DNA from: Podospora anserina
Lineage: Eukaryota
Reading direction: 5' to 3'
Length of the DNA: 64,000 nucleotides
Assembly: GCA_017654855.1 (NCBI GenBank)
Contig: CM030336.1
Coordinates: forward strand, 2,170,001 to 2,234,000
The notes under the pieces are model-generated. The model did no database searches. It was not told the origin of the DNA and saw only the letters and a program-made list of their open reading frames with translations. Positions within the stretch are counted from its first letter, which is position 1; the number at the start of each line of letters is the position of its first letter. This document shows positions 3,989 to 35,268 of the stretch, piece by piece. Made by a program: the position numbers and the translations under genes.

Positions 3989-4030
3989 AATAGGACCGAA
4001 GGAATTTGGGTATAACTAACATTACGCGGC

Positions 4031-4660
4031 TCAATTACCCTAAGAAATTAGAGGCGTACTATTAACGGTACCTTAGGTAATTAGAAAAGAAGGGCAGGCT
4101 ATATTAGGATTTAAGGAAAAGTCGGAAGGCTAATTAAGACCTAAAGAAAAATCTAGAAAGGAAAAGTTAAATGGGACGGTCACTGAGGACTCTGCTACGG
4201 GACGGTCCCGAAGAGAGATAAAAGAAATAAATTACTCTTTACGATTAACTTTTTTTAACTCTTTTATATTATTAAAACTACGAGAAATAGTATGAAATAT
4301 TTTATTAAGCTAAAGACTTTTTCACTTTTGTAAATGAGCGACTTTAATTATACAAGTAGATAATTTAGCCTTCACCCTTTTTATATTAAAATTAAAACGG
4401 TTATAATAAATAACGATTTTACAAAGGTTAAAGCTAGAGGGATCGCCGGCCTTATAAAAAGACTAATTTGAAAAATATAAAAAGAGTAGCGAATAAAATT
4501 ATTAAAGAAAAGTTCGTAAGGAAATAAACGGCGTTCATAATAGGTATAATAGGTAAATATAGTAGAAAAGTTCCGTAAAATAATATCGAATAAAATGTTA
4601 CGATAAATAGTTTTAGGATAAGTAATTTTCGAGTGTTTAAAACTCCAGTAAAAAAATATA
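4031..4660 (-). pseudogene. RIP-mutated antisense accessory ORF of E1 (Zn2Cys6-like Cys cluster plus coiled coil)
   Basis: Minus strand Y-T-Y-Y-E-R-R-L-F-P-Y-x9-Y-S-F-Y with TAT/TAC at Cys positions (C-x2-C-x6-C-x9-C-x2-C after de-RIP). C-terminus GTVNSTPLIS*GN-stop matches E2/E3. 5' end approximate; at least one frameshift. Confidence 0.65.
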
Positions 4661-4867: not shown

Positions 4868-5238
4868 TGTGACGAACCCCTGTACAGAACCTCTGAAAGG
4901 GATACGGGTTGAAGGTAACTTCTGACAATTGGTTCGGTGCAGCTAAACAGTGCACAATAAGATGTCTCAATATAAACACAAGATACAGTGAATACAATTG
5001 TGAATTGCATACTGCGGAACTGTCTATCTACACCAGCCAGTTCCTCCGTATATATAGACCTGTTTATCACCATTATCACCAGTGATAATGTCGATTATCA
5101 CTCGTCGTTCACCGAAGGCTGGTGATAATCGTGATTATCACCCTTGGCGCTAGTGATAATCTCACTTCCCCACTTTTCCGTTCCTAGTGGTTGGACGGGT
5201 CGCGCCCCGCGCTCCCCACTTATGTCAGGTCCGTGACA
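4868..5238 (-). mobile_element. Chromovirus-family LTR, GATA-repeat U3 type
   Basis: TGTGAC...GTGACA termini, shared R/U5 module and TATATATA box. U3 matches 19124-19262. Flanks atcca/acaaa are not a TSD. Confidence 0.92.
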
Positions 5239-12400: not shown

Positions 12401-12445
12401 TCTTGTACTTATCAATAAAGTTTATATTCATAAGCACCTAGCTTA

Positions 12446-12695
12446 CTAGCTAGGTCTCTATATATAAAGGGCTTTTCTATAAAGCAAGGTTTTTTAAGAT
12501 TATAAATATATTGATATATTAATTCTTTAAATAACTTTTATATTTTTAAGTAAAGTTAAAAAAAATTATGATGCTGGAATATTACGAGGTTAGTGAAAAA
12601 ATCTATATTTAAATATATATATAAATATTTATAATCCGTAACTTCATTACTTTAACCCTCATGAAAAAGCCCTCTACCTATAGAGACCTAGTTAG
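12446..12695. repeat. Imperfect ~35-bp inverted repeat pair enclosing ~180 bp (possible MITE relic)
   Basis: ctagctaggtctctatatataaagggcttttctat (12446-12480) vs reverse complement of 12661-12695: 29/35 identical. Confidence 0.55.
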
Positions 12696-13738
12696 CTAGG
12701 TCTCTATTAGTAAAGAGGTTAATAGTTATTTTATTATACGTAGTATAATATTAGACCATGAAGAGGGTGAGTCTTTATAATTTTTATTATTTATAAAAAC
12801 TGTAGGATTTAATAGATTAGATATTGTTTAACTTTTTTTATAGTATTAGTTTTATTAATAAAAACGTTATTAAAGTATATTTTTTAAAAGTAAGAAAAGC
12901 GGGGTCATTCTTTATTCAAGGAGTAGAGATGAAATTTAAGTATTAATTAAACTTTAAAAAGAGCTAGGTAATTATAGCAACATATTTTAATAGGACTTTA
13001 ATTTCTTTAGTTAATTTTTAATTTTGATTAAATTAAAGATATGAAAGCCTCTCAAGGTTTTGACCTATTGAATATAATTTCTACTGTTTCCTCTATTTAA
13101 AAAATATATTCTGAATAAATTCCTTAAAATATAGCGTAGGTATTTCATTACAAATAACGTTAACAATCTTAAGTTTTTTTATATATTACAAGAAAAGAAA
13201 CTATGAATTTTAATTATTTATACTAATAAGGAATGTCTTTAAAAATAACAGAGTTTTTAACTTTATTAGTATCAATAAAGGTAGAGGTAGTAATTAATTT
13301 ATAAAGAGTAATATAGTACTTGGTAAGGGATTTAATTTATTCAGTTTAATTAGTGTTAAGTTTATGAAAAGCAATATAGTATTTAAGGTTATGAACATAT
13401 TGAGATATTTTATTCTAGAATATTATATAAATACTTCAGCAGCGAAGATTTTACTTTTATTATTTATTATATTTAATTTAATAGTAATTTCTTTTTTAGG
13501 TAAGTTTATCAAGGAACACCTTGAAGATATAAGCGGCCTTTTTACTAACGGTAATATTAATTCTTTTTAGTTTTTAGAAAGTATTAATAAAATAAATTAA
13601 TAAAAACCGGATTATTTATAATCTTTTTCAAAGGGGATATTATTATTTTAGGAGGTAAATTAATATTAAAACTGTTTATTTTTGTTTAATTTATTTAGGT
13701 AATCAATGTAGAGAAACTATTATAGGTTAATTATAACC

Positions 13739-14143
13739 TGTAACGAATCCCTATCCAGAACCTCTAAAAGAGATACTAGTCGAAGGCACTTCTGAATAAT
13801 TCTGGTTCGGTATAGCTAAATAATATATAATAAGGGCTTGTCTTAATTATAATAATTAAAATACTAACGATTATAACTGATATTATATACTACGGAACTA
13901 TTTATTTATATTAGCTGGTTTCTCCGTATATATAGACCTATTGGTTTTCTAGACTATTAACTCCCAATAATAATCCTTTGTTAAATTATTAACTTTTAGT
14001 AATGATCCCGCTTTAAATTACTACCTTTTAGCAATAATTCTATAAGTAAAGTTATTTCCCGTTTTATTTAGCTCTATTAACGATTACCTATATATATCGT
14101 ACCCCGTGCACGGTTTGTCTTACTAAATAGTTTAATTATAATA
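13739..14143 (-). mobile_element. RIP-mutated 3' LTR of a minus-strand chromovirus (probably E2)
   Basis: Starts tgtaacgaatccct and carries the shared R/U5 module. Ends like 1-91 and is followed by the reverse-complement PPT (taatactcctctttttaaa). Confidence 0.85.
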
Positions 14144-14596
14144 TAATACTCCTCTTTTTAAATTGAAGTCTCGGTAACTTAGTTTTTGAATAACTGCTCA
14201 TTTTCTATCTGTTTCTACTTATAAACAGTGTATCTGAGCCCTGTAAAATACAGGGCCTTAAAGGCAATATAATGGCTTGGATCAGCAGTGCTTAGGGACC
14301 ACGGTTGCCGGAACGGAATTCAGCCCCCTTAAAGCAATCCGAAGTCCCGGAAAGCCGAACGCTAAGGCCAGTGCCCTGCAGCGGTTAAACGGTAGCGTAA
14401 CGTGGCCTGTAACGTAGCCTGTAACTTTATTTTGGTTAGCGTATTTAGCGGGCGTTCGGGCCCGGGAACGGAGTTACTTTCGGGGAGCGAGTAGAAGATT
14501 AACGGCCTATAAAACTTCTGCCTTACACCCTATTTACTGTGATATTTCTTAGTCTGTAAGGTTTAATTAATATATTAGTTTACTATACTTATTAGT

Positions 14597-15033
14597 TATG
14601 ACGAACCCCTATATAGAACCTCTGAAAGGGATACGGGTTAAAGGTAACTTCTAATAATTAGTTCGGTATAGCTAATAGTGCATAATAAAATATTTTAATG
14701 TAAATATAAGATACCGTAAATATAATTGTGAATTGTATATTACGGAACTGTCTATTTATATTAGCTAGTTCCTTTATATATATAGACTTCTTTTCCTAAC
14801 CGTAATTCCTTTAATTAGTGTTCCGAGTATATTAATTACTTACGCTTAGCCTAATTAATATCTTAATTATATTAATTACCCCGGCCTAGCCTACTTAATC
14901 TAATTAGTATTCTAATCGCACTAATTACCGTCCCTCCCTATAATTAGCTTTCTTAAGTATTTTCCTAATTAGCCTTTACTCCTTTAGTTCTATAATTAAT
15001 CGTTATTCTCGTCTATATACTAAGGTTATAATA
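14597..15033 (-). repeat. 3' LTR of E3 (CTGATCAGTG-type U3)
   Basis: Aligns end to end with 23433-23870, differing almost only by C->T/G->A. Confidence 0.93.
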
Positions 15034-15143
15034 CGATACTCCCTCTCTTAAACTAACGTCCCGGTAGCCCCATTCCTTTTATTTTTTTTAATAATAACTT
15101 CCTTCCTTAATAAATTTTCCCTTCCCATTACTATCTTTTCGTA

Positions 15144-16181
15144 ATATTTAACCGCGTTAAGAAACCTACGCCGAAAGGCCCTTTGTTACGAATATAATGT
15201 GGATACCCGCAAAGAATAACTAATAGGAAAGAGGAGGCACGGCAGCCAATTAAGAGAAGGGAGGATGGACTAGTAAGAGGTGGATCATCCGGGACATGAA
15301 GAAATCATAAGCGATTCCCGGAAATCACTTATGATCCTTAAGAATCGGTCATGATCCGGGGAGAAACAGAATGATTTAGGCTTAGCATTAGGTCTATATA
15401 TACGGAGGAACTAGATAGCTTGTAGATGGTTCCGCAGTATACAATTTACAGTTGTATTTACGGCATTTTGTGTTTATATCGAGATATCTTATTGTGCACT
15501 GTTTAGCTGCACCGAACTAATTGTCAGAAGTACCTTCAATTAGTATCCCTTTTAGAGGTTCTGTACAGGGGTTTGTCACACCCTTCTAATACCCTTCGCC
15601 GCTAAAATCTTATTACCGCTACTTTTATTTTTAATAACGAAATCCTTCCCTATTCGTCCTGGGAAGCTCTTAATATTTTTGGTTATCGCGCTCTCGAGCG
15701 CTTTTCTAGATATAACTACTACATTAATTCTAGTCGTTCCGACTGCGACGTCCTAGGTCTTACTCCTGCTTTAATAGTCTCTCTTCGTCGCTAGAAAGAG
15801 AAACTAGACGCCGAAGAGCAAAAGGCCTATACGACTATACTATAAATTACCTCGAAGCTTTCGCGGGTAGAGACCTAGCGTCGTACTTTAGTCGCTAAGT
15901 TCCGTTATATCGCGGCCCGCGAGGAGCGGTTAATCGAGGACTTAGAACGGGAGGAAGTATAAATTGCTTTTATTATTAATCTTCCTTTAACCTTTTCTCT
16001 TAATTAGGCCTCTATAATATTAAACTAGCTCGGCTTAGACCTTCCGGATAACCTATTCTTTAACCTTCCGCTTAGTTCTAACTTTTTTATAAAGTTAATT
16101 GTTAATCCTTTCCGGAGTTCCCCGCTTCCGGCTACCCCGGACTTTTCCGGCGGTAATCCTCCTATTTTCTAGGGTAATTAA
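15144..16181 (+). pseudogene. Antisense accessory ORF of E3 (Zn2Cys6-like cluster plus coiled coil, ~210 aa), interrupted by the solo LTR 15184-15580
   Basis: After removing the solo LTR and one TSD, a single frame runs from ATA (RIP of ATG): xFNRVKKPTPKGPSNTLRR*NL...EILPYSSWEALNIFGYRALERFSRYNYYINSSRSDCDVLG...LRR*KEKLDAEEQKAY...AAREERLIEDLEREEV...PDFSGGNPPIF*GN-stop. All internal stops are TAA/TAG, consistent with RIP of CAA/CAG. Confidence 0.8.
15184..15580 (+). mobile_element. Solo LTR of the chromovirus family, TCATGATCCGG-type U3
   Basis: TGTTAC...GTCACA termini, perfect TSD ccctt/ccctt, shared R/U5 module. Confidence 0.93.
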
Positions 16182-16223
16182 CGCTTATAGTATTACTTAC
16201 GCCCGGATTTCTTTATATTTATT

Positions 16224-16293
16224 AACTTTATAGTATAGTACGTAGTATATTAATTATTACGTCGAAGGCGTAAATTCGATTTTTATCGAGGTT
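16224..16293 (+). ncRNA. tRNA-like unit embedded antisense in E3 (heavily RIP-mutated)
   Basis: 70 nt, ungapped alignment with 24329-24398, runs into a T7 tract. Confidence 0.65.
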
Positions 16294-16990
16294 TTTTTAT
16301 ATTTAAGTTATAAATACTTTTTTATAATTTAAATATAGTTCTTTTTACTTACTTAAGTTTAAATCGGTTTAAGTATTATCGGTAAAAATTTTTTAACTTA
16401 TTTAAATAATTAAAATATATTTATAATTCTTATAAGTTATTTATAACCGGGTATTTTAATTAATTAATTAAATATTTTATTTAACCTTTATTAAACCGTA
16501 AATTTAATAATTTTTTTATATTATACTTTTCTTCTTCGTTCTCCATTACTTCCTATATATTTACCTTACTTACCGGTAGTACGGGTTCCAAAAGTAAAAT
16601 ATAAAAAGTATATAACTTTAAACGTATCGTATTAGGTAATTCTAATTCGAATATCGTTTTTAAAATCTTTTTTTTTAATTTAAATAGGCTTACTTTCCTA
16701 TAGTCTAGCTTCTTACTAAGTCTTTTAATATGTAAATTACGTATAAAAAGGAATACTATATCCCTCCCCTTAAAGTAAAGTCCCTCGAGCCTTTTAATAT
16801 TATAATATTTCTATATTTTTTTCCTTATAAACTTTAGTTTTTATTTAAGCTTATTGTAGAATATATATATTTTATTTACTTTAACCCCGGCCTTAAGTAC
16901 CTTTACGTTTAATCCTTACCGTAGGTTTACTTTATATTTAAAGTTTACGAAGAACGGCGTAACTTTAGTCGTTTCTATTAGTAATATATT

Positions 16991-17624
16991 TGTTAATGTG
17001 TGGGTACTACTAAGTGCCCTACTTACTGCCCTACAGATTGATATTACAGTGGGCAGTACTGCTATAAGCAGTAATGGAACTTCCCGGCTTGGATCCCTTT
17101 AGAATATTCTTTACAAGGGACCCTTGAAGGCTTACAGGGCTACTGTGGCCTGAGGCTTAGTCAATGGATACTAGAACCTTCCAAAGTGGCTACAGGCTTA
17201 CGTAGTAAGTTGCCACAATGGTGTAATTTATAGGGCACCTTTGCTACTGAAGGTTCTATAGATTTCCATAAGTCTACACTAGACCCACCTAAGCCCACTA
17301 AATACCCAAAGTGGTATAGGGGCTTCCAGGGCCTACAGGACCCACAGTAGGCCTACGAAGGCCTATATATAGACCTCTCCTCTCTCCTGTAAAATAGTTC
17401 CTTTCTTTTTTTCCTTAAGGGCAAAAGCTTAAGGCTAAGGCCAAAGGCCAAGGCCAAGGGTAATAAAGGCAATTCTTATTCTTTATACCTCACTGTATTA
17501 CAGTGCTTTACCTTCCTTCGGCACTGCCGTCGTATCCTCCCGCTTCCGCTTGCGCACTGCTGTATTTTACAGCAACCCTGTATAGGTTCTATATTATAGG
17601 CCTATCAGGGCTTACCAGCTAACA
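16991..17624 (+). mobile_element. Solo LTR of an unrelated family (634 bp)
   Basis: TGTTA...TAACA termini, perfect TSD atatt/atatt, TATATATA at ~17364, AATAAA at ~17462. Interrupts the E3 integrase region. Confidence 0.88.
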
Positions 17625-19123
17625 ATATTATATACTAATTATACCGTAAATAATAATTTAATTTAATTATCTTACTCGAAATTAATATAAATCTATAAGT
17701 ACTATTCTATAATTTAATTAAGCTGTTCCGTTTAATCGTTTATTTAAAGGTAGTAGGCCGAAAATACTTTACTTATTACCCTTAACCTCGTTATTAACGC
17801 TCTTTAAAACTTCGAAATAAATTTAATATCGCGGTCCGTAATAAACTCTTTCGGCTATATATATATTAATATAATATACCGTAGTACTATATCCGTTAAT
17901 TACTTTACCGATTAAATCTCTTTATAAAATAAAAAATATATTTACTTTATAAGCCTATCGACTACCGTTAATATACTATCGTACTTAACGCCGGTTACCG
18001 TATTTCTTAACTTTAGTAATTTAGTAATAAAGTTTATCGTAATTAAACTCTATAGTCGTTCTACTACTAGTAGTAGCTTTAGAAATCCGTAAGGCTTATA
18101 CTTCGTAACCCTTATTTTTTCGTACGTATAGTATAACTAGATAGCTTTTTTAATATTATCCTTAATCCTTAATTAATTAAAGTATTACTTAATCTTTTCT
18201 ATAGTCTTTACGATACCTATATATCCTCTGAACTTCGATCCGTAAATTTTTATTATTAGTATCGCCTTATTACTTAGCTTTACGTATACTCGATTCTTAT
18301 ACTATAATTTTCCTTAACTATCTTTTTAAATACTTTATAGCTTTAATTCTTCCTATTACTATTATTCCGTAATATTATTACTTAACTTCCTTTAATATTT
18401 ATTAGAAATAACTTACTTACGATACATTATATAACACTTTATTTACGGCTAAAATAGATATTTAAGAGTACCGTTTAGCGTTTCCTTAAGTAATAGTAGT
18501 AACTTTTTAGGTATATCCTTATAGTAGTCGGTTCGCCGGCTAAATACGTTTACCCTAACGTTCTCCGATCCCTTTTTATAATTAATTTAAAAATTAAATT
18601 CCGAAAAAAACTTTAATTATTACGTTTACTATACGTTAAGGACTTTCGTAATAGTAAAGTATCGTAAATTCTTATAATCCGTATAGACCTATATTTTATA
18701 ATTAATATTATTAAAGTATAGCCTCTATTCCTCGAACGCTTCGATAATAGCAAGTAGCTCTTTATTATAAATTAAATAGTTTTAACGTACCCCTTTTAGC
18801 TTTTTCGAAAAGAAAACTATTAAATATAACTTTCTATCGTCGTCTCGCTATCCTAATTGTCTACCGATCGTATAGTTTAATATATCTACCTCGACCTCGA
18901 ATAGTCGATTAGGGTTTAGTAATTTAAGTACTGGGTCCTTTAAAATAACTTTTTTTAGCTCCTAAAAGGCTTATTCCTTTTCCTACCCTTACCGGAACTC
19001 CACGTCTTTTTTAGTTAAATAATTAAATAGTTACGCGATTCTTACGTATTTATAAATAAATATCCGATAGAAATTTATAAACCTTAAAAATTCCCTAACG
19101 TATATCTATAATTACGGCGTAGG

Positions 19124-19454
19124 TGTCACGGACCTAATATAAGTGGGGAGCGCGGGGCGCGACCAGTCCAACCACTAGGAACGGAAAAGTGGGGAAGTCA
19201 GATTATTACTAGCGCCAAAAGTGATAATCGATATTATCATTAGTAATAATGGTAATAAATAGGTCTATATATACGAAGGAACTAGCTAGTGTAGATAGAT
19301 AGTTCCGCAGTATGCAATTTATAATTATATTTACGGTATTTTGTGTTTATATTGAGACATTTCGTTGTGCACTATTTAGCTGCACCGAACCAATTGTCAG
19401 AAGTTACCTTTAACCCGTATCCCTTTTAGAGGTTCTGTACAGAGATTCGTCACA
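19124..19454 (+). mobile_element. Solo LTR of the chromovirus family, GATA-repeat U3 type (40 bp shorter than 4868-5238)
   Basis: TGTCAC...GTCACA termini, perfect TSD gtagg/gtagg. Confidence 0.94.
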
Positions 19455-22445
19455 GTAGGCCAGTCCTTAACTACCCCAATTTTCCTAGGTTTTATACGAA
19501 CCTTACCTAGTAATATTAAATATCCTAGATATACTATCTTTTATACGTGGAACTCGCTCTTTTCTTTATTAATTAAAAGTCCGGCTCCGTATAGCGCGTC
19601 GAGTATCTTTTATACATATCGCTTATATTTTCTCTAAAGTACGTAAGTAGATAAGAACGTTATTAAAATAATATATTATTGTTTTATCGAGGTATTTCCG
19701 GATCGTGTAGTTAACGAGAGATTGGAACGTCGCGGGCGTATTAATTAGCCTAAATAGTATTACAAGATACTTAAAATAACTATAGAATATATAAAACACT
19801 ATTTTCTATTTATCTCTTTCCTTAATCTGTATATAGGCGTACCCGATAAGTATATTTAAACGTATAAAGTATCGCGCCCTAATTAATTAACTTCGTAACC
19901 TAAATATTAACGGTAGCGGGTAATTATTTTTTATCGTTTCGTTATTTAGTTAGCGGTAGTCTATATATAGTTGTAAGCTACCGTCCTTTTTCGGTACGAA
20001 AAATACGGGGTATCCTACTAGCGATATAAACTCCTAATATATCCTCTCTTTAAATTCTTATCTAAATACTTCCGTAGCTCTTTACTTTACTTATCGTTAA
20101 TATAGTAAACCTTAAATAGCTATAGCTTAGCTCCTTCTTTTAACTTAATTTCATAGTTCTACGGTTCTTACTCTGGAAATCCCTTTAAATATTTAGCTAT
20201 AAAGGCTAAGTATCTTCGATATTTTACTAATACCGTTTTTTTCTTACTTTTCTCTACGTTATTATAATAAATATACTTATTAACCTCCGATATCTCCATT
20301 AACGTCGTTAACCTTATTTCTTCGATTTTACCGCCTATATTAATAAAATATATTATTACTTCTTAGGCTCTTTACGGTAGTACCGTAGAGGGTACTTATC
20401 CTACACTCTACTCTATACGTGCGCCTAATCTCCTATCGTTAGCTAAATACTTTTAAAGTTCCTTTAATTATAAATAACTATTATTTTTTTAATTAATATT
20501 TAGCTTATAGTTTTTATACTATAATTACCCTAGGATTATATTTTTCGAGGGTCCTATATCTATAATATTAAATATAATTAAAATTATTTTTCCTTCGACT
20601 ATAATATTTAAAAGTAATATTTTTTTATAAACCTTTTACGTCGGAAATAGTTTTTATATAACGATTTATTCCTTCTTTTTTTTCTATAGTATTTTAATCT
20701 AATATATAAACTATAACGAAATTAAATTCGTTTCTATACCTTCGTTTATTAATATTACTATTTAAATATTTTTTTAATACGTTATAACTTAAAAGTATTT
20801 ATCTTTTTTACCTTTTCTTTATATAGTAACGACTTTATTAATAAGTATTAGGTCGTTATCCTATACCTTTACTTTACGCCGATACTTCCGGAAAATACCG
20901 TTCGTAGTTTATTAAAGGTTACCGGCCCCCGCGAAGGGCCGCGAGTTATTTCTTAAGCGGTTATATTATTTAAAAGCGTCTTTCTACTCCGGATTATTTA
21001 GTAATATAAAGTCCTTTAACTATACTCGTTTAGTTTCCTTCTATTTTCCGTCTCTAACGTTCCTAGTATTTTATTGAGTATACTTTTAATAATACTTCCG
21101 TTACTTAGTTAATACCTTAAGCTCGGCGGCCTAATAGTATCGCCTAACTTTTTATTATAAATATAGCGCGTAGTCTAGGCTTAAGTACTACTATAGTACT
21201 ACCTTTTCTCCCGAGATTTTACTATTTAACGTATAGCTTTCGTCGATATACCCGAGGTAGTACCTTACCTCTTTTAGCGTAAACTAAATTACTTAAAATC
21301 TATTTTCTAATTAAATTACTTTCCTTGCTTTCTATAATAAATAATCGTTTAATTCTTTATTAATTTTATTTTATTTTATTATCGTTTTTTTAATTAGCTA
21401 TAACTTACTTTCCTTACTTACCTTACGTACCGGCTAGTAACCGTATAGCGACTTACTTTAATAATACTCTACATATCCGTATATAATACACTAGAACTAA
21501 AGTGCTTTCCGATACTCCGGATATTTAGGATAAAACTATACTATATTTCCTTTATAGGGTATATACCTTATAAATATAAATGTATCTCTTAATAACTTTA
21601 CGATCCTAATATTAACGATTTTTTTATTTTTCTAATATTTTTCCTAACTTTTATATATAAGTTTCTTAAACTATATTTATATAACGGCGATCCTATATTT
21701 ACCGTATTACTTCTTTAGTATTATTTACCGGATAAGTCCTTCCTATTACGTAACATTATTCTTTTTAGTAACCTCCGTAACGATTTCCGTAATAACTTAT
21801 ACTATTTACTTTTATAATACCTATATCTAAAAATCTCCTTCCTCGTGCTCTACCTTTAGCCTTTCCATTACTTTCTACAGCTCCTGGAACTCTATTTCTT
21901 ACGTAGCGTATTAGTTAGAGTCTTCCTCGAAGCTTACCGCTTCGATTTATTAGTACCCGATAACTACGACCTTTATAACTCTCGGTCCTTTTAATATAAT
22001 AATTATTATAATATCCTTTTTCTATCCGAGTTACTTAAGTGCCCTATAGTCCTTCTTAAAGTATCCTGTTTTACCGCAGTTAAAACATTTACGGTTATCT
22101 TTACCCTTATCCCGGCCCTACAACCTTTACTACTAAATAGCGTCGACTTCTATAGGCCTTACGTAGGTAGTCCCTAAAACGTAAGTTCCGTAAAGCCGTC
22201 TCTTTTTCTTATCGTTAGGGCAGTACGGCCCTTACACACGTATACCCTTACGCTCTCTACGGCGCTAGTATTATCGATCGTTAATACGGACTACCATTAT
22301 AATGTACTCGTCGATAGTCTCCGGTCGCTCCATTCGATATAGCTCGTCCTTAACTTTTTCCTTAAACCCGTTATAGAACAACTGCATTAACCTTTCGTCG
22401 TTAATCGCGCTGCGGAGCGCGTCCGTCCTAAACGCTATAGTGTAG

Positions 22446-22846
22446 TGTCACGGTTCTGGAAGACAGTGGGGCCACGAGGGACCAATCAGGACTGGACCGA
22501 GCGATCGAGCGGGGCTCACGGTCCGAGTGGACGGAACGGACCAATAAGATGGGGACCGGGGACCGCGGCGGGGCTCACGGTCCACGGTCCAGTATCGGCC
22601 AATCAGGAGTGGACCGAGGACCGTCTGTAAGTTAACGGTCCACGGCCCTAAGGTCTATATATACGGAGGAACTGGCTGGTGTAGATAGATAGTTCCGCAG
22701 TATGCAATGACAAGTCACAATCGTGGTATCTTAACTATTGTGATTGAGATATCTTGTTATGCACTATTTAGCTGCACCGAACTAATTGTCAGAAGTTACC
22801 TTCAACTAGTATCCCTTTCAGAGGTTCTATATAGGGGTTCGTCACA
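22446..22846 (+). mobile_element. Solo LTR of the chromovirus family, GGACCG-repeat U3 type
   Basis: TGTCAC...GTCACA termini, TSD tgtag/tatag (one RIP change), inserted in E3 gag. Confidence 0.94.
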
Positions 22847-23432
22847 TATAGTCGGCAGTAAATCGAGTCTATTTAAGGTTAGCTAGTCGCTCCTGGGCAC
22901 CCTTACCCTCGTTATATTCTCCAAATACCTCCTTAATCTTCTTCTTAAAGCCCTTATACGACTTAAAACACGTCTAGGTAACCTCCTCCCTCTCGTTATA
23001 TATATTATCGAAGTAGTCTCTTAAGATCGGCTCGAACTACGTAAATACTATATCCTTAAGCCTGGACGTAATATACACGACTTTAGATTCCTCGTCCGGG
23101 AAACGAGAAGGGTAATACCGAAAGTAAGCTTTAAGTTAGATTAAGAATCCTCCTAGCTTTCCTTTTATACCTCCGTAGCGGTCGGGTACCTTAAGTTTGG
23201 TACGTTTTTCCTCCTTACGTAAGGTACTAATCTCTTAGTGGAGTATAGCGTTTTTTTACGTAAAGGTATCGTAGGAAAGGCGTGATTTATCCTTAAGCTT
23301 TTAGATACGAGCGAGAAGCTAATCGATAGTAAGTTGGGTAAACGCCCTTACCTAAGTATTAACGTTTCCGGCTATAACGTTAATTTAATACCTTTAATTT
23401 ATCCGTAATAGAGTTAAAGTAAATATATAACG

Positions 23433-23870
23433 TATAACGAACCCCTATATAGAACTTTTAAAAGGGATACGGGTTAAAAGTAATTTTTAATAATTAGTTC
23501 GGTATAGTTAAATAGTATATAATAAGATATTTTAATGTAAATATAAAATACCGTAAATATAATTGTGAATTGTATACTACGGAACTATCTATCTATATTA
23601 GCTAGTTCCTCCGTATATATAGATTTCTTTTTTTAGCCGTGATTCCTCTGATTAGTGTCCCGAGTATACTAATTACTTACGCTTAGCCTAATTAGTGTCC
23701 TGATTACACTGATTACCCCGGCCTAGCCTGCTTAGTCTGATCAGTGCTCTGATCGCACTGATGACCGTCCTTTCCTATGATTGGCTCTCCTAGGTGTTTT
23801 CCCGATTAGCCCCTGCTCCCTTAGTTCTATAACTAATCGTTATTCTCGTCTATATACTAAGGTTGTGACA
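23433..23870 (-). repeat. 5' LTR of E3
   Basis: Pairs with 14597-15033; followed on the minus strand by the PBS and gag. Confidence 0.93.
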
Positions 23871-24051
23871 TCAGTGCCTCATAAGCCTATGTTACAGTGA
23901 TTATCTTTTATATATTACAGGGCGCCGCCTCTGCAATCCACCTTCCCTCAGTGCTCTGGCAACTGTCAAATGCTGCAGTCAAAGTCTTCTTCGCTCTCAG
24001 TGTACTGCGCCGATAGCTATTCGAGCCTATATTCTACAGGCCTTAATAGCA

Positions 24052-24288
24052 CCTAAAGGAGTTATAAAAAACTAAGCGCGAAAAGTAATATATTCGTTCC
24101 GCTTTTTTTCGGGACTATTTTGTAGTGGAGCCCTCCGTTACTATCCCTTCCGGTTTTCTTTTCTAGATTTTTCTTTAGGCTTTAACTAGCTTTCCAACCT
24201 TTCCTTATTTTTTAATATAGTTAGTACTTCCTTCTTAACCGGTTAGGGTACCGCCGGTAATACGCCTTTAATTTCTTACGGTAATTAA
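24052..24288 (+). pseudogene. C-terminal remnant of the antisense accessory ORF of E2
   Basis: Ends ggt acc gcc ggt aat acg cct tta att tct tac ggt aat taa (GTAGNTPLISYGN-stop), homologous to the E1/E3 C-termini. Aligns with the reverse complement of 4031-4270. Confidence 0.7.
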
Positions 24289-24328
24289 AGTATAATATTA
24301 ACTATATACTAGTCCCTAGGTATTTATT

Positions 24329-24398
24329 AACTTTATAATATAGTATATAGCACGCTGGTTATTATATCGGAGGCGCAGGTTCGATTCCCGTCGAGGTT
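24329..24398 (+). ncRNA. tRNA-like unit embedded antisense in E2 (best-preserved 3' half)
   Basis: aacttta-ta-atat-agtatata-gcac-g-ctggt-tattat-atcgg-aggc-gcagg-ttcgatt-cccgt-cgaggtt-tt. Forms a cloverleaf after de-RIP; B-box GGTTCGATTCCC. Confidence 0.75.
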
Positions 24399-27300
24399 TT
24401 ATATTTAATTTAGCAAATATAGTTTATAAATTTAAATATTTTAATTTTTTACTTTAATCGGTTTAAGGATTACCGGTAGAATTTTTAAATTTATTTGGGT
24501 AATAGACATTTACTATTAATTTCTCTAAGTAATCTATAGCTGGGTAATTTAAATAACGAATTAAATATTCCAATCATCTACTTTTAAAGTATAAATCTAA
24601 TATTTCTTCTATATTATACTTTTCCCTTTCGTTTTCCGCTTTTTTTCAAATATTAGCCCTACTTACAGGTGATACGGGTTTCAAACGTAAGATATAAAAA
24701 GTATATAAATATAAATATAACATATTAAATACTTTTAATTTAAATAACGTCTCTAATATTTTTCCTTTCATTTTAAACGGATTTATATTTCTATAGTCTA
24801 GCATCTTACTAAGTCTTTTAATACGTAAATTACGTATAGAAAAGAATGTTATATCCCTTTTTTTAAAGCGAGGTTCTTCGAGTTTTTTAATATTATAGTA
24901 TTTTTATATCCTTCCCCTTATAAAATCTTTTAAAAAATTTATTGTAAAGTATATATAATTTACTTACTTTAACCCTAGCCCTAAGTACCTTCATATTGGG
25001 TCCTTCCCGTAGATTTACCTTATATCCGAAATCTAAAAAGAACGACATAATACTTATTGTTTTCATTGATAATATATTGTATATTAATTGTATTATAAAT
25101 AATCAATTTAATTATTTTACCTGATATTAAGATAGTTCTGTAAGTACTATTCTACAATTTAGTGTTGTCACCAATTAAGGCTCTTTATCAGGTAAGAAGT
25201 ACGTTTATTTAATAAATTAAGTCTATTATAATTAAGCTTCATAGTAATTTTATTATTAATACGAACTCTAAAAACCTATAAAACTTGTATTTATAACTTT
25301 TATTCTTTTGTATATATAGTGTAATTGAATAGCTTCCTTAATATCGCTCTTAATCTTTAATTCTTTAAAGTAGTATTTAAATTTTCTATAGTCTTTGTAA
25401 TATTCATATACGCTCCGAACTTCGATGCGTAAATTTTTATTATTAATACGGTTTTCTTATTTAGCTTTACGCATATTCAACTTCTATACTATATTCTTTC
25501 TTAACAGTTTTTTTAAATACTTTACGGCTTTAATTTCTCTTATTAGTATTACTTTGTAATATCGTTATTTAATTTCCTTGAGAATATATATTAAAAATAC
25601 TTTGTTTACGATATATTACGTAATACCTTATTTAAAATTAAAGTAAGTACGAAGAAGTACTTTCTAACGTCTTTTTAAATAATAATAATAACTCTCTAAA
25701 TATATCATTATATTAATCGGCTCCCTGGCTAAATAGTTTTACTTTAGCGTTTTTTGAACTATGTCTATAATTAAGTTAAAATTATATTTTAAAAAAAGCT
25801 TTAATTAATGCAACTACTATACGTTAAGGACCTTCATAGAAATAAAATATCGTAAATCCTTATAATTCGTATAGACCTGTATTTCGTAATTAATATTATT
25901 AAAGTATCGCTTTTATTCTTTGAACGTTTCGATGATAACGGGTAATCTTTTATTAGATTAAGTAATTCTAACGTATTTCTTTTATCTTTTTTAAAAACAA
26001 TTTACCGGATCCTTTAAAATAACCTTTTAGCACCTAAAAACCTCCAGTTTTCCTCTTGCTCCTACCAAAACCCTACGTTTTTCTTAATTAAAGAATTAAA
26101 CAGTTACGCGATTTTTATATACTTCCGGATAAATATCTGATAGAAATTTATAAATTTGAGGAATTCTTTAAAATATATTTATAACCACGGTTTAAATTAA
26201 TTCTTAACTATCGTATTCTTCCTAGGTTGTCTCCGAATCTTAACGATATTAAATATCCTAGATATATTATTTTTATAGTCAAAACTCGTTTTTTTCTTCA
26301 TCAATTAAAAGTCCAGCTTTATATAGTAGGTTTAATTTTTCATATATATATTATTTATGTTCTTTGAAAATATATAAGTAAATAAAAATATCTTCAACAT
26401 AATATATTACTATTTTATCGAGGTACTTCCGGATTATATCATTAACAACAAATTAAAACGTTACGGGCGTGTTAATTAATCCGAATAATATTACGAAATA
26501 TTTAAAATAATTTTAGGGTATATAAATCATTATTTTTCTATTTATTTTATCTTTAATTAATATATGAGTGTACTTGATAGGTATTTAAGCATATAGACTA
26601 TTACGCTTTACTTAGTTAATTCCGTAATTTAGATATTGACGGTAGCGGATAATTATCTTCTACCGTTTTATTATTCAATTAATAATACTTAATAGATATA
26701 ATTATAAATTACAATTTTTTGCTCGGTACGAAAAATACGAGGTACTTTGCTAGCGATATGAACTCTTTGATATATCCTCCCTTTAAATTTTTGTCTAAGT
26801 ATTTCCGTAACTCCTTATTTTATTTATTATTAATGTATAGACCTTAAATAACTATGGATTAGTTCCTTTTTTTTTCTTTAATTTTATAGTCTCACGGTCC
26901 TCGCTTTAAAAATTCATTTAAATACTTAACTGTAAAGGCTAAATATCCTCGATGTTCTACCGGTACTACCTTTGTCTTAGCTTTCTTTAGGTTATTATAA
27001 TAAACGTAATTATTAATCTCCGATATTTCTACTAACGTTATTAGCCTTATTTTTCGATTTTACCGTTTATATCGATAAAGTATAATATTGCATTCTAATC
27101 TCCTTACGGTAGTACCGTAAAAAGTACTATTCTTATACTCTACTTTATATATATTTTTAGCTTTCTATCGTTAATTAAATATTTTTAAGGTTTTCTAATC
27201 GGAAGTAATTACTATTGCTTTAATCGATATTGAGATTATAATCTTTATGTTATAGTTAATTTAGAAATATAGGTTTGGAGTGTGCTATCTTTATCATATT

Positions 27301-29762
27301 GAATATAATTAAAGCTATTTTTCCTTCGACTATAATATCTAGGGATAATACTTTTTATAGACTTTTTACGTCGGATATAATCTTTATATAACGATTCATT
27401 CTTTCTTTTATACTAGTCTAGTTCAATATATAAACTCTAGCGAAATTAAATTCGTTTTTATATCTTCGTTTATTAATCTTACCGTTTAAATATCCCTCTA
27501 ATGTATTATAACCTAAAAGTATATATCTTTCTTACTTTTTCCTTTCATAATAACGATTTCGTTAATAAATATTAAATTGTTATCATAGACTTTTACTTTA
27601 CGTTAATATTCCCGATATTACTTTTCGTAATTTAATAAAAACTACTAACTTCCATAAAAGGTTATAAATTATGTTTGAAACGGTAATATTTTTTAAAAGT
27701 ATTTTTCTATTCCGCGTTATTTCATAATATAAACTTTTTTAATTACTACCGTTAAGCCTTTTTTTTCTATTCCTGGTATTTTGTCGAGCTTATCTCCGAT
27801 TATTTCTCCGTTATTTAACTGTTGTATTAAACCCAGTTATTAATTCGTAATATCGCTTAGCCTTTTCCGGTAAGTAAAGCATATATTCGGAGCTTAAGTA
27901 ATATATTAATATTACTTTTCTTTATTAAATTATACTATCTTCTTTATTGTTTGGGATTTTTTACTAGATGTAATTTTTTATATACTTAGGTATAAACTGT
28001 ATAATTTAAACGTTACCTGTTAATTTTACCGGGTCTTAGACTCTCTAAACATTTTTTGGTTTAATTCCTTATAGATTTGTTCCTATTTAACTATCGTCCT
28101 TTAACTAACCTAAACCTACTTTCTTTACTTTCTTTACGTACCGGTTAATAATTATATAGTAATCTACTTTAATAGTATTTCATATATCCGTATATGATAT
28201 ACTGAAACTAAAATACTTTTCGATATACCGGATATTCAAAATAAAACTATATTACGTTTCTCTTATAAAATATATACCATATAGGTAAATGTATTTATTT
28301 TATTCTCTTGGAGAGTTTAATATTAGCAATCTTTTTACCCTTTTAATATTTTTCTTTACTTTTATATACGAGTTTCTTTAACTGGGGCGTTCGTTGTATA
28401 ATTACGGCTTGATATTAGTAAATTTATTTTTTAGTACCGTTTATTGAATAGGTCTTTCCTATTATATAAAATCGTTAGTTTTATAACCTTTAGAGTAATT
28501 TCCGTAATAATTTGTATGAATTAATCCTATAACGCCTATATTAAAATCTCTTTCTTTATACTCCGCCTTTAGCCTTTTTATTACTTTCAATAGCCCCTAA
28601 AACTTTACTTCTTCTTATTTGGTATACTAATAAGGAGTTTCCTCGAAATTTACTAGCTTATTTTTTAATACTTAATAACTATGATTTTTATAACCTTCGA
28701 TCCTTTTAATATAAAATTATTATAACGACCTCTTCTTTTTATCCGAATCGTTTAAATACCCTATAATTATTTTTCAAAGATTTCACTTTACTATAATTAA
28801 AATACTTAAAATTATCCGTACTTTAACTTTGGCTTTATAGCTTTTATTACTATGTAGCGTCGACCTTTGAAGCTCCCGTATATATAATACCGGAATAGTT
28901 AGTATTAAAGTATTATAATTTATATTTATCGTTAAAGCGGTTATGCCTATAGTAACCCCCGGTTATTACCTTTTTTTCCCCGTAGAACATTCAAATTACC
29001 GATCGTCGATTCGTATAGCTACAGTAATATATTTATCCATATTATTAAGCCTCGAGTTTTTATCTAATTTATCCTTTGCTTTTTCTTTAAAACCGTTATA
29101 AAAGACTTCTATTAACCCCTTATAGTTAATAATATTACGTAAATCATTGATTTTAAAAAAAGCTGCGTAATTTATTATTAAATACGTTTAACGTAAGTTT
29201 ACGAATCTCCTTTATATATGCCTTATTTCAACGTACTTGGTAAATACTTCCTTAAGCTTAGTTTTGTAAGTTTAGTAACTGTTAAAATATTATACGGTAA
29301 AATCCTTCTAACTCTCGGTTTTTTTTTATAATTATTAAAAATAGGTTCGAAGTACATAAAAGTTTGATTTTTAAGTTTAATCGCCGCAAAACTTACTTTT
29401 GATTTTTCGGTAATAACCTAATTTAAATACTAGCGAAAAGTTTTAAATTAAGTTAAAACCCCTTTAGGCTTTACTTTTGTCTCTTTATAGTATTCCGCTA
29501 CCGGAAATTCAATCCTTGATTTAAATACGGTCGAGATAGCGATAATCTAATTCCTAGTTTAGTAAGTTTTACCTTTAAATTTTTTAATATGTTTAATAAG
29601 CCATTAAAGCGAAATGATTTCAAGATTTATAGCTATAATATAAGGTCTCTCGTTATTTAAACCAAGTAGGACGCTTCTTATTTAAACGTTTCTAGGTTAG
29701 GCTATAGTAGTAAAAAAAAGCTTTCAAAATATTTATAATACAGCTAAAATAAATATAAAGCG

Positions 29763-29875
29763 TATAATAAGCCCCTACTTACAACCTCTAAAAGAAATAC
29801 TAATCGAAGATACTTTTAAATGATCCTACTTTGGTATAGCTAAGTAATATAAATAATAAGTAGTCTTAGTAATAA
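29763..29875 (-). repeat. U5 remnant of the E2 5' LTR
   Basis: tataataagcccct...aacctctaaaagaaatactaatcgaagatacttttaaatgatcct aligns with the shared U5; the adjacent PBS/leader matches 23400-23432. Confidence 0.75.
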
Positions 29876-32800
29876 TATCTTTTAATATTTTATGCCCTTG
29901 ATATAATATACTGTATTTTATTAATCAAAATTATAATTTCAGAGACAAAACCTATCAAACTTTATAAATTAATCCTCCGTATTGAACGGAAACCTTTATT
30001 ATTAATAATACCTTTATATATTTATTTAATATCAATTCCTACTCAACAATCAGCAATTCGAACGTATACCTTTAAAATCCTGAATATTTATTATAATTTA
30101 ATAAATAAGTATAGTTTAAAAAACAGAATGTTAGATTAAAAAAAGGACATGAACCAAAAAAAAGATAAGATATTATTAAACCTACTTTGATTTCAAAGTA
30201 ATACAAAATATCTTTTATGCATTAAGAGTAAGATTAATTAATACAATAATCATTAAGTATGTACTAATTCCTGGTTAAATTCAAAACCTTTCAAGTTAGA
30301 ATTAGTCCCGAGGAGAGTTTAATATCCCCTATTAAAAGTCTGTAATCTTTAAAACTAGACGAGGTATTTATGACCGGTCCTGAAAATAAGTAAACTCTAT
30401 TAAATTAAAGGATTATAAATCGGTATACTATTTCAAAATTAAAAAATCTTAAGTTCTATTTTTATAAACTAAAAAAGTGAAAAATAAAATTATTTTAATA
30501 ATTCTAATATTAAAGTAGGTCCTTACAAGGCTTAACAATAAACCCCAGGTAAAAATTATCTATTATAAATCTAAGTGAATAATAAACTAAATACCTTTAG
30601 ATTTCTACTCAATATGATGTTTCTTATTTACTATACGTTACTTTTAAACTTGTTATTACTACGTAAAAGCTGATTAAGAAAATATACCTTTAAAATATAA
30701 AGTCAGGCCAATAGTTATAAGTTTCTAAAATAACAAGAACATATATTCTATAAAAGCTTTTATTTTAACTTTAATTTTATTTTTGAAATATATAGTATCA
30801 ATTATAATACCTTTGTTAAAATACACAAGCACAATAGTTTTATAGGTGCCTTTTTTACAATTGAAAAAAAATTTTCTAGTTAAGTATAACCGAGGGCTAT
30901 TATGAATTCTCTCATTAAGCTTACGAAATTATTAAAAATAAAAAGTAAAGATTTAAAATCTAGAGAAAATGAAATATGTCGTTTAGAAAGCCTTTATAAA
31001 ATTTAAAATAAGGTTGTAAGTTTTAAACACGTAAATATACTAAATCACAAAAAAAAAGTTTTAGAATACTAATTTCGACTTTAATATATTTTTATAATGT
31101 TAAAGGAACCCTTTATAGTAATTGACGTAAGTAATTATTTATTAATGAGCCCTAGTAAAGCATATATTGATAGGTGTAAAGGGAAGTTAAAAAAGGTTTA
31201 TTCAAAATAGAGGGCCTACTATTTTTTAACGTTACAATAATGCGGGACAAGTATTACACAGCCTTATAAGCAAGTTAAGCCAACCATATATATAAAAAGC
31301 CAAAACCTTTATGTTGCAAAATAATGCGGAAATATTAGTTTTATTATAATTTAGAAAATAGTTTAATTTAAGAACCCTCAACGCAAATGATACTACAGGG
31401 AGTTTGTATTAAAACTATATTAAAAATGATTAATTATATAATACCGTTCAATGCTTTATATTAAACTTACCATATTTTTTACTATATATAACTTTACTAA
31501 ATATATATACATTCATACTAAAATAAACCTAAAGGTTATTTAAAATTTAGTAAAATATATTAAAAAAATTAATAAAGTAAATATTTATTTTAACGTTAGT
31601 CTTATTGGTAAGGATATTTATAACGATAGGTTTAGGATACCTAAAACATTTACCGATTTGGATTGTCCTAAGGACCTTAAAAACTTTAAAATTATTTAAA
31701 AGTTTTTCATTAGAAAGAATTAATAGGCCTGCAAATTAAAGATTAAAATAGGCCTTTACCATAATATTTTCTATTATAAAAGCTATAATAAACCTGTTTA
31801 TAAGAACTTTTCAAGAGGTTTTATAGGTTAAAAAGGTCTTAAATATAAAGAACTTAACTTAAGATTTATAATACTTACTTACATATATAGTAGTGATATA
31901 GGCTCTGTATTTACTACCTATAGCTTAACGCTTTATAACTGTATTAAATATACCTTAAGAAAATATATAATCAAATAATAAATATTAAACACTTATTTAT
32001 TAAACAAATACCTACTAATAACCTTATTAGAGTTTTAGTAGGTTAAAATCTTAAAGAGTTTATAAAATAATAGGCCTTATAAAAAATCCTAAAGAAACGA
32101 TTAAAAGGAATTTTAAATTGCTTTCAAATCCTTATCTCTAAATATTACATATATTTGTAGTTTAAAGTAACTACTTAATACTACATTATAAACTTTAATA
32201 CTTTTTATTTTTCTTATAATAATCAATTTATGAACTAAGTTTTACTTTTCTTTAAAAAGTAAATTTAAAGCTAAACTATTTTACATAATATGTTAATAAA
32301 CAACATTAAAAATAGGTCCCTACAAGGCCTGCCTTATAGCAGGTTACTACTATAGTACTACAGAGTTTTAATTACGAAAGAAGTATCAAAAATATTCAAA
32401 ATATTTAATAAAACAGTTGCCTGGCATTTACTTAGTACTCTATAAAGTTTCTACCTAATAATACTAACTATATTAAATCTTTATTTTTAATACTATAATT
32501 AATTTAAATAACCTAAATTTTATATTTAAACTAATAAACTTTATAAATACTATATAGCATCTATAACCAAGTAAATCTATAACATCCGAACTTATCGGAG
32601 CCCAGTAAAATAATTTATACTATTTTATATAGCCGTAAGTATCTTTAATAAAACATAATTAAATCGTCGATTTTTAAACCGAACCTTAGCTTAGTAACCC
32701 GCTATAATATATAAGGCCGGATAAAACCCTTGGGGAATATAGAATTATAGTCGAGAACGAACCTTATAATAAAGTATTAAGTTAAAATATAAAAGGTTAT

Positions 32801-34685
32801 TATAAAATTTATAAAAGTTTACCCATAATACTTTTTTTCTATATCACTCCAAGCGTTATAACTTTAGTATACCCAGTAGTAAACTATAAGTATTGTGCAA
32901 ACTATTTCCGCTACACCGTAGGTACTATAAGTATTTACCGTTATAGGGCCCTTAGGTCTGTATATGTAATATAATATTTAATAAATATATTTATTAATAA
33001 GTTAATGATATGAACGTTGAATTAATATAATTAAACAGATGTCGGGTATTAACTTTGTGAGTTTGTTTTTTTAGGGGGGAGGGGATTTCTTAAACTTTAT
33101 AAAAAATATAAGTAATCTGATTTATAAAATTTATTATTAGAATTATTATTAATATAGCGCTTAATTTAATAATAATATAAAAATTCAAAATCTTTCGTAG
33201 TTTAATACTTATATATTGATATTTATCTATATTTTTAAGCTATACGTTCCTATATAAAGAACATATTACTATATAAATCTTCGAGATTTAATGTTAAAAA
33301 AAGGTTTAATAGTAATATAAAATTTTTATTAGGGAAAATAGGGTTTATTGTATAATAAAGAAATTATAAATATAATTATTAATATAATTATAAAAATAAT
33401 TATAATACTAAGATTACTATATATATAGGTCTAATTAGGGTGTGAGATTTAGTTATTACTAAGCTAGTCTTTAAAGCAGTGGTAGAACAGTAAATAGATT
33501 ATATATACTATAAAATATAAACTAAGAATAAACCTAGAAAAAGTATTACTATACTATAGTTTAAACTACTGCATTGATTATAGTATATTTAATATTGTAC
33601 ATTTTCTCAAATATGAATGTCTCGCAATTTTATAAAAAAAAGATTGGTGATATAAATAATACTAGTATGTTTAACTATAGTCACTTAAATATTAATACCA
33701 ATATTTAGAAAAATAATAATAAAAATTAAATATAATAGTCTCTTAAATACTATTACTATAATTCTAATAAAGTCCACTAACTTATTAAATAGTACTATAA
33801 AAGGTTTTTCTTTTATAACACAATCAATAGTATATTGAATATAATAGTAAATGTATTAATATTTAAAAGCCTGATAATGATAATTACTATAGAGAACCCA
33901 TTTATTATCATTTAGATTTAAAAAGTGGGATACTTCAAAACTGTAACAGAAATAGATATATAGTGTTTTTTAGAAGAAGAAAAGTATTAATGAATATAAT
34001 TATAAAAACTTTATTCATAAAATAATTCAATATAAATTTAATAGTAAGGGTAGCTATAATACTATTTAGGGATAAAATTCATGTTATATCATAAACTCTC
34101 ATTATAGTGTAGAAAGTTTAAAAAAACTAAGGAAACTACTAAACCGCCTATTAACTCTATTAATAAAGCTTATATCAAAGCCATTAATTTAATAACGCTA
34201 GTTAATATCAACTTAAGAAAGGTACTGAATAGGGCATATATTACTAATATTAAAATACATTTAGTATAGTTACTACTATAATTAGTTAAGTACAATAACT
34301 ATTAAAACGGGCATGAATTAAAAAGAAAATCTGTTAAAATAAGTAAATATATATTAAACTTATGCATAATTAATATATATAATTATTAGATATTTTTAAC
34401 TAAATATAACTATATTATTAAGTTTTAAAATAAACTCTAATTTATTTATTTATTATAATATGTAAAGCTTTATAACGCTTTTACAGGGAATATAATAATA
34501 ATTAAGTATAATTTTACTATAAGGTATTACATTAAAATTATAAAAAGCTATTATCAGAAATATAGAGGGTTATTTACTCTTATACGTAGTGTATAATAGT
34601 GCCTTTTTTGTGCTATATACTTTCTAATACTTTTTTTAAAAAATTAATAATAGTTTTAAGTTTTATTTATAATTGTATTCTATAC
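29876..34685. repeat. Unclassified RIP-degraded repeat DNA
   Basis: AT-rich with no ORFs; no diagnostic motif identified with confidence. Confidence 0.55.
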
Positions 34686-35127
34686 TGTGACGAACCCCTG
34701 TACAGAACCTCTGAAAGGGATACGGGTTGAAGGTAACTTCTGACAATTGGTTCGGTGCAGCTAGACAGTGCACAACAAGATGTCTCAATGTAAACACAAG
34801 ATACCGTGAATACAACTGTGGATTGCATACTGCGGAACTGTCTATCTACACCAGCCAGTTCCTCCGTATATATAGATCCTGGGGCCCTGAGGTGCTCGCC
34901 CTGCTACGGCCCCGATTACCCATAACACATTGCATCCTGCAAAGTGCTCGTCGTGCTATGCCTCTGATCACTCGTAGCATCTTGCATCCTGCAGAGTGCT
35001 CGTGTGTCTTGGCGCCATAGCGCTTTCGTCCAGCCCTGATTGGCTGTCTCCTGACTTCTCTAATGATTGGCTAGGGACGTCCTGCGCCCCACATGTGGCG
35101 CGGCCTGCTGTTGGGTTAACTGTGACA
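34686..35127 (-). mobile_element. Solo LTR of the chromovirus family, least mutated copy, at the AT/GC boundary
   Basis: TGTGAC...GTGACA termini, perfect TSD tatac/tatac, shared R/U5 module. U3 has a TTGCATCCTGCA(A/G)AGTGCTCGT direct repeat and two GATTGG boxes. Confidence 0.95.
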
Positions 35128-35268
35128 TATACCTATTTTTAGTTAAGGGCTAATTTTAAACATCACTACATTACTATTGAAGCAATATAAAAAATTCATG
35201 ATTGTCTACCATTGCTAGGTTTCTAGTTTATGAGTTGGGAGGTACCTAATACTGTAGCAGACTTGAAG

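Follow-up and report, generated by a model that had tools for sequence, protein, structure and literature searches.

Pieces of small RNA polymerase III (Pol III) genes are found inside retrotransposons that have long terminal repeats (LTRs), and the closest known kind to the case reported here is TRIMp3 (Helenus, Cassandra). The passages of the survey that describe TRIMp3 present it as a set of short non-autonomous LTR elements of 311-1263 bp, in which Helenus carries a transfer RNA (tRNA)-like sequence and Cassandra and Ajax carry 5S-like ones, and in which the tRNA- or 5S-derived sequences sit in the LTRs, have boxes A and B conserved, in most cases cannot specify a functional RNA, and are regarded as the Pol III promoter of the element (Kojima 2024, PMC10886601). 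The same passages describe tRNA-like pieces in Repbase LTRs as not rare and as mostly incapable of encoding a working tRNA, and they report Helenus from fungi (PMC10886601). In the Podospora anserina complex, the most abundant retrotransposon is crapaud, which is described as having LTRs of ~400 bp whose 3′ half is conserved and whose 5′ half varies, full copies that are heavily affected by repeat-induced point mutation (RIP), and coding capacity for GAG plus reverse transcriptase (RT), RNase H, integrase and a chromodomain; the seven Podospora genomes of that study have 150 full copies, among them putatively active ones free of RIP (Westerberg et al. 2024, PMC10787394). This work deals with a stretch of P. 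anserina DNA of 64,000 nucleotides (nt) (assembly GCA_017654855.1, contig CM030336.1, positions 2,170,001 to 2,234,000 of the forward strand), hereafter the 64-kb window, meaning the whole stretch that was analysed. It holds three internal copies, A, B and C, of what its sequence identifies as a RIP-degraded Ty3/gypsy chromovirus, crapaud-like by its LTR architecture, and each copy carries one tRNA-derived unit, antisense to pol and close to its end.

The three units are homologous and can be aligned over their full length in 71-75 columns, and they lie where a preliminary description of this DNA had placed them, each being 71 nt long:

3918-3988, minus strand: tRNA-derived unit of copy A (covariance model 90.7 bits; without Rfam tRNA match)
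16224-16294, plus strand: tRNA-derived unit of copy B (Rfam tRNA 24.8 bits; covariance model 91.8 bits)
24329-24399, plus strand: tRNA-derived unit of copy C (Rfam tRNA 16.0 bits; covariance model 94.4 bits)

The copies of the element that contain them were defined by self-comparison of the window, performed also in an alphabet in which transitions were merged:

475-4279, sense plus: internal copy A
~16117-22432, sense minus: internal copy B
~24039-29157, sense minus: internal copy C

A covariance model made from the three units was run on the window with filters off and returned exactly three matches, namely the units themselves, the runner-up reaching 17.1 bits (E 0.1). No unit was found by this model in any LTR copy or other degraded repeat of the window, and a location within the LTR, considered as a candidate, was rejected because the model finds the units internally only. 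Each internal copy contains one unit (3/3), which lies in its 3′ untranslated region before the 3′ LTR and runs antisense to pol, the tail of pol being ~40-45 nt from the 3′ end of the unit. The aligned position is identical in the three copies, with homologous flanks on both sides, which agrees with the earlier view that the unit is a fixed part of the element and not a separate insertion in each copy. Fungi have tRNA-derived short interspersed elements (SINEs), and this is the one point in favour of independent insertions of such a dispersed SINE into each copy. The shared position and flanks in 3/3 copies contradict this explanation already within the window, as does the lack of a SINE body or tail at the units, where the pol tail starts ~45 nt downstream; moreover, a SINE head common outside these elements, which the preliminary description had named as a refuting case, was not found outside the three copies in the 64 kb. 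We therefore assign independent SINE insertion a negligible probability. No encoded CCA was visible at the units, and this, together with the tRNA-sized extent without a body, speaks for the capture of a tRNA gene or pseudogene rather than for a SINE. A metagenome scan with the unmutated form of the 3′ half of the unit gave 0 matches, and a scan with a RIP-degenerate pattern gave 1 (L001, 2204-2231), without tRNA-like flanks and without an ARAGORN call, which was treated as chance.

The tRNA likeness of the units was assessed with Rfam RF00005 (gathering score 29 bits), sub-threshold matches being obtained from short stretches with lax filters, and with ARAGORN. The raw sequence of copy B matched model positions 1-71 with 24.8 bits (E 0.002, 151 nt searched), and that of copy C matched the same positions with 16.0 bits (E 0.53). 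In the raw window nothing was called by ARAGORN or by Rfam at the gathering threshold, and all raw copies remain below 29 bits, as expected since they are RIP-mutated; RIP is well known in Podospora's family (Sordariales). In a restored consensus, in which T gave way to C and A to G at each position where at least one copy retains C or G, ARAGORN with default settings called a tRNA of 71 nt, its type undetermined and its anticodon loop abnormal. This was the sole call across ~1 kb of restored flanking consensus, and column-shuffled consensuses gave no call at all (0/1000). In the raw copies, standard pairs occupy 81% of the 63 pair cells in the cloverleaf register, versus 36.5-50.8% after a shift of the 3′ partners by 1-3 columns.

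These measurements bear directly on chance resemblance, in which an AT-rich RIP relic would happen to mimic a cloverleaf. Such an explanation could draw on the raw copies all being under the Rfam gathering score, on copy A giving no tRNA match even with lax filters, and on the folding energy of the restored unit, which is not below that of shuffles (z -0.37) and is in this respect usual for a tRNA. It is nevertheless extremely improbable in view of the full-length model matches in 2/3 copies, the exact 11-nt B box, the ARAGORN call that none of the shuffled consensuses reproduced, and a pairing in register that no slid arrangement approaches. We consider it very probable that the unit is tRNA-derived and was inherited with the element.

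The units are, at the same time, derivatives of a tRNA and not working tRNA genes, as judged from the shortened loop. The anticodon loop has 6 nt in 3/3 copies (ttctac in A, tattac in B, tattat in C) instead of the canonical 7 nt, as the preliminary description had claimed, and it is too short for normal decoding, in line with the expectation that the unit would be unlikely to decode. The B box, GGTTCGATTCC, which had been reported as intact in two copies, is indeed present as an exact 11-mer in 2/3 copies (A and C). Several other features of the proposed cloverleaf stood only in part. The fold itself holds, both by ARAGORN and by the pairing in register, but the G's given at positions 9 and 12 of the earlier consensus are found in no copy, and therefore the D stem has only 3/4 pairs. 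The D arm, said to be A-box-like, matches the box A consensus partially without reaching it in full; this arm may be of the Val/Gln/Glu/Gly type, and no single parent isoacceptor stands out. P. anserina is reported to have 361 tRNA genes. Of the terminal run of T4 to T7, the T7 is real and occurs solely in copy B, but in the T4 of copies A and C two of the T's are the final bases of the acceptor stem. The three units also differ in their preservation: copy A has an intact 5′ acceptor strand and B box, together with 1 added base and 2 stem-breaking transversions; copy B has the highest AT content of the three, a RIP-mutated B box and the T7 downstream; and copy C has the best-preserved 3′ half and an intact B box. 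Stem pairs altered on both sides changed from G-C to A-T, and, because RIP transitions hit both strands, such double-sided changes are not evidence of selection; the stem covariation that had been suggested as a check thus consists of RIP transitions and gave no sign of selection.

The element that carries the units spans ~7 kb plus nested inserts, and its coding and 3′ untranslated regions were delimited as follows:

475-3870, plus strand: pol region of copy A, RIP-degraded (inverted homology to copies B and C)
16340-22432, minus strand: gag-pol region of copy B, RIP-degraded (Pfam domains; homology)
24440-29157, minus strand: gag-pol region of copy C, RIP-degraded, ends approximate (90-94.5% to copy B with transitions collapsed)
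3989-4279, plus strand: 3′ untranslated stretch of copy A, purine-rich (aligns with copy C)
24038-24328, minus strand: 3′ untranslated stretch of copy C from the unit to the 3′ LTR, purine-rich (aligns with copy A, 3989-4290)

Pfam was searched on translations with X at stops. On the minus strand of copy B it identified, in order, RT_RNaseH_2 (7.6e-20), RT_RNaseH (2.6e-16) and SH3_Tf2-1 (8e-05), the last being the integrase SH3 domain, and this is followed by a tail that looks chromodomain-like by eye and stops ~45 nt short of the unit. Pfam gave no hit for RT or GAG, which fits RIP damage. The translations of copy C gave no Pfam family, and an open frame at 24646-24903 (minus strand) of this copy has an integrase-tail sequence that resembles that of copy B. 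The start of the 3′ LTR in copies A and C can be given as a range only, ~160-290 nt from the unit, and in copy B the 3′ untranslated stretch is broken by a nested insert of ~1 kb. The region of copy C is present as DNA in 20 sequencing-run entries from 5 studies, and no RNA run is listed for it, which counts neither for nor against expression.

Further segments were observed in copy B. A 193-nt inverted LTR fragment (15389-15581) lies inside the ~1-kb insert of its 3′ untranslated region, an inverted solo LTR of ~334-371 nt (19124-19457), with 81% identity to 4868-5238, is nested in its pol, and ~670 nt of its integrase region (16954-17623) are absent from copies A and C.

The age of the unit within the element can be judged from the divergence of the copies and from the structure of copy B, for which both LTRs and the target-site duplication are preserved:

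14597-15033, minus strand: 3′ LTR of copy B, 437 nt (pairs with 23433-23870)
23433-23870, minus strand: 5′ LTR of copy B, 438 nt, with the internal region of copy C to its right (pairs with 14597-15033)
14592-14596, no strand: left target-site duplication of copy B, TTAGT (one C-to-T versus the right copy)
23871-23875, no strand: right target-site duplication of copy B, TCAGT (matches the left copy)

Copy B is a complete insertion (14597-23870) flanked by the 5-bp duplication TTAGT/TCAGT, the single difference being a C-to-T change at CpA (CpA to TpA), and its two LTRs are 86% identical, or 99.3% with transitions collapsed. It illustrates neatly that RIP struck once the element had inserted and extended into the flanking duplication. 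With transitions collapsed, the internal copies A, B and C are pairwise 88-94.5% identical, leaving 6-12% divergence beyond RIP-type transitions, and since this internal identity compares with 99.3% for the LTR pair of copy B, the copies are not recent local duplicates. Copy B has a target duplication of its own and the copies have diverged from each other, and therefore the unit predates their divergence; by these sequence comparisons, it was already present in the common ancestor of the lineages of the copies.

To what extent the unit has been kept by selection was addressed by measuring transversions plus gaps in the unit and in same-size windows of the element. Windows at least as conserved as the unit numbered 141/494 for the B-C pair, 137/352 for A-C and 292/360 for A-B. 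The non-RIP divergence of the unit is thus ordinary for the element, and no extra constraint was seen; in the A-C pair, the unit (0.147) was not better conserved than the neighbouring untranslated stretch (0.085). This result weighs on the possibility that the unit is a selected Pol III/TFIIIC module, the B box of which would recruit TFIIIC, and Pol III as well, to act as a barrier or nucleosome-positioning site that delays the spread of heterochromatin. The barrier activity of tRNA genes is established in yeast, the B box is exact in 2/3 copies despite heavy RIP, the position of the unit is identical in all copies, and the integrase has a chromodomain-like tail, which in such a scheme would serve heterochromatin targeting. 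But the unit is not conserved above the average of the element, its A box is merely partly consensus-like, the T4 in copies A and C takes in two acceptor bases, and all copies in the window are heterochromatin-like RIP relics, so that we regard a selected module of this type as unlikely.

A second selected role would be that of a processing signal in an antisense transcript begun in or beyond the 3′ LTR, where cutting by RNase P and RNase Z before pol would limit double-stranded RNA and RNA silencing, in a manner like that of mascRNA and MALAT1. The unit is tRNA-sense on the antisense strand and lies ~45 nt from the end of pol, which speaks for this role, but the stretch between the LTR and the unit is just ~160-290 nt, the unit has no extra conservation, and Pol II is not halted by cleavage alone; we find antisense processing quite improbable. 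The preliminary description had proposed both of these roles and, as a third, a small tRNA mimic; none of the three gains support from the present results, and they stand as candidates only. For the combined claim that the unit is a selected Pol III/TFIIIC site or antisense RNase P/Z site at the pol end, shielding the element from heterochromatin or RNA silencing, our judgement is decidedly unlikely. If true, this would be the first known autonomous LTR retrotransposon with a Pol III-type module for self-protection and not for its own transcription.

Pairing of the element RNA with a cellular tRNA was considered as well, and it bears on the sequence that follows the 5′ LTR, which was examined in copy B and downstream of two LTR remnants:

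29763-29871, minus strand: 5′ LTR remnant of copy C, the conserved U5-side part (primer-binding region from 29762 downwards)
121-221, plus strand: 5′ LTR remnant of copy A (primer-binding region from 222)

The sense transcript would contain, near the 3′ end of the genomic RNA, the complement of an entire tRNA-like sequence, and this could pair with a cellular tRNA, either as a second primer-binding site that bridges the genome ends in a bipartite, Ty3-like arrangement or for packaging. Yet when the 45 nt following the 5′ LTR were compared with the complement of the unit, the longest match was at chance level, being reached in 224 (copy A), 220 (copy B) and 54 (copy C) out of 500 shuffles, so that no complementarity beyond chance exists in 3/3 copies, and the missing loop base would leave a bulge in the duplex with the parent tRNA. 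An anti-tRNA site is accordingly very improbable in our view. By the same comparison, a Ty3-like bipartite primer site was rejected, as was an element that encodes its own primer tRNA, the complementarity of the primer region being at chance in 3/3 copies. Read-through of the tRNA primer in plus-strand synthesis was also rejected as a source of the unit, because it would put an antisense copy directly after the 5′ LTR and not after pol.

On the basis of these results, we propose, with moderate confidence for the statement as a whole, including the passenger status, that the unit is an ancestrally captured tRNA gene or pseudogene, antisense in the 3′ untranslated region and passively carried. 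First, a tRNA gene or pseudogene would have entered the 3′ untranslated region of the ancestor of a crapaud-like Ty3/gypsy chromovirus, and thereafter it would have been copied along with the element. The antisense orientation may be the only one tolerable to an LTR element: a sense-oriented tRNA fold in the genomic RNA would be a substrate of RNase P and RNase Z, whose cleavage would detach the 3′ LTR sequences on which reverse transcription depends, and the antisense orientation would be tolerated because the genomic RNA then escapes the tRNA-processing enzymes. While intact, the unit would have had a tRNA-type internal promoter, with a B box and a partial A box, and could have bound TFIIIC; Pol III may also have used it as the template for a tRNA-like RNA of ~75 nt, which would be non-decoding given the 6-nt loop. 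It would have been a passive passenger and not an adapted part of the element, and all three units in the window have been wrecked by RIP together with the rest of the element.

Several points weigh against this proposal. The passenger status is a default, and the cloverleaf and the exact 11-nt B box can be recovered despite 6-12% non-RIP divergence; a neutral passenger might be expected to show more decay. A selected role would likewise be compatible with the exact position, which is ~45 nt after pol in every copy. In the B-C pair, the unit has 0 transversions in 74 columns, versus 21 in the adjacent 150 columns, a contrast that vanishes in the element-wide window comparison; and the copies may have died before most of their divergence accumulated, so that the conservation test has little power. 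On the other side, the two stem-breaking transversions and the inserted base in copy A favour a passenger.

The LTRs of the window show a mosaic structure beyond the copies themselves. A U5-end module of ~195 nt is common to at least 9 LTR copies, the other half being variable, and LTRs with this common module have three continuations, with lengths of 371, 408 and 437-438 nt. Between the 5′ LTR of copy B and the internal region of copy C there is a G+C-rich stretch that looks nearly RIP-free (23876-24037), which is probably the low-copy variable half of the 3′ LTR of copy C and the insertion site of copy B. LTRs of a second subtype occur as a direct pair, one at 6333-6738 and the other beginning at 13739, with a spacing of 7406 nt, and the 7 kb between them are very AT-rich, without detectable homology to copies A, B and C and without a tRNA-like unit; the region 6333-14145 is either another element having the common LTR module or an unrelated LTR pair. 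No Pfam families were found in 6739-13738 and 29900-34680 (X at stops), and when both regions were compared with the three internal copies by a more sensitive two-letter BLAST, the output was thousands of short hits, scattered and not colinear, which are uninformative noise of the reduced alphabet. A G+C-rich segment of 88 nt at the window start (1-100) recurs at 14056-14143 with 95% identity when transitions are merged, and a related piece lies at 35050-35129.

The G+C content is 0.21-0.42 across the first 36 kb of the window and ~0.52 in the remainder, which is gene-rich (36000-64000) and apparently RIP-free. An open reading frame for cystathionine gamma-synthase (61212-62891, minus strand) has its nearest named relatives in Apiosordaria backusii, with 92% identity, and Triangularia verruculosa, with 91%. 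Two other long open reading frames were named by eye only: one at 56967-58514 (minus strand), which resembles a DnaJ/zinc-finger protein, and one at 59429-60385 (plus strand), with an SPX-like N-terminus.

As to the literature, the main text of the crapaud paper is silent on tRNA, on primer binding, on a polypurine tract and on antisense (PMC10787394), and the parts of the P. anserina genome paper drawn on here do not mention crapaud and do not link tRNA-like sequences to retrotransposons (Espagne 2008, PMC2441463). A literature search that covered main-text material gave no description of a tRNA-like unit in crapaud or any autonomous chromovirus; annotated consensuses in supplements may bear on this. 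If intact copies retain the unit, it could serve as a lineage marker, it would give rise to spurious tRNA predictions in genomes of Podospora, and it would offer a simple test of Pol III/TFIIIC sites or tRNA-type processing against silencing. If it is a passenger only, it would illustrate which orientation of a tRNA insert is tolerable to an LTR element.

Among known systems, tRNA-derived SINEs share with the unit a tRNA-derived head, an internal Pol III promoter, here a putative one, and the loss of decoding, but they have a body and a tail and disperse alone, whereas the unit has neither and, within the 64-kb window, moves only inside the LTR element. At the 3′ end of MALAT1, mascRNA is a tRNA-like fold that forms part of a transcript of Pol II, and the likeness to it lies in the fold, the present unit being known as DNA. 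The primer-binding site of Ty3 is bipartite, and in it a tRNA pairs with sequences close to the 3′ end of the Ty3/gypsy RNA; the present element differs in that the complementarity to the primer site was negative. The host element resembles crapaud, beside which it is set by description only, in LTR architecture, heavy RIP and host family; of the domain set described for crapaud (PMC10787394), RNase H and the integrase SH3 were detected in copy B only, and the chromodomain by eye.

In conclusion, the likeness to TRIMp3, as far as the cited passages describe it (PMC10886601), is that of an LTR retrotransposon bearing a piece from a small Pol III gene that is mostly non-functional as an RNA gene. 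TRIMp3 elements, however, are short and without coding capacity, whereas the crapaud-like host is of the autonomous kind, ~7 kb long, with domains for RNase H and integrase; and the TRIMp3 sequence is placed inside the LTRs, sense-oriented and driving the element, whereas the present unit is internal and antisense and cannot make the element RNA. The known cases are thus LTRs of small non-autonomous elements, and the present case differs from them by a tRNA-derived piece fixed in an autonomous element, on the opposite strand and directly after pol.

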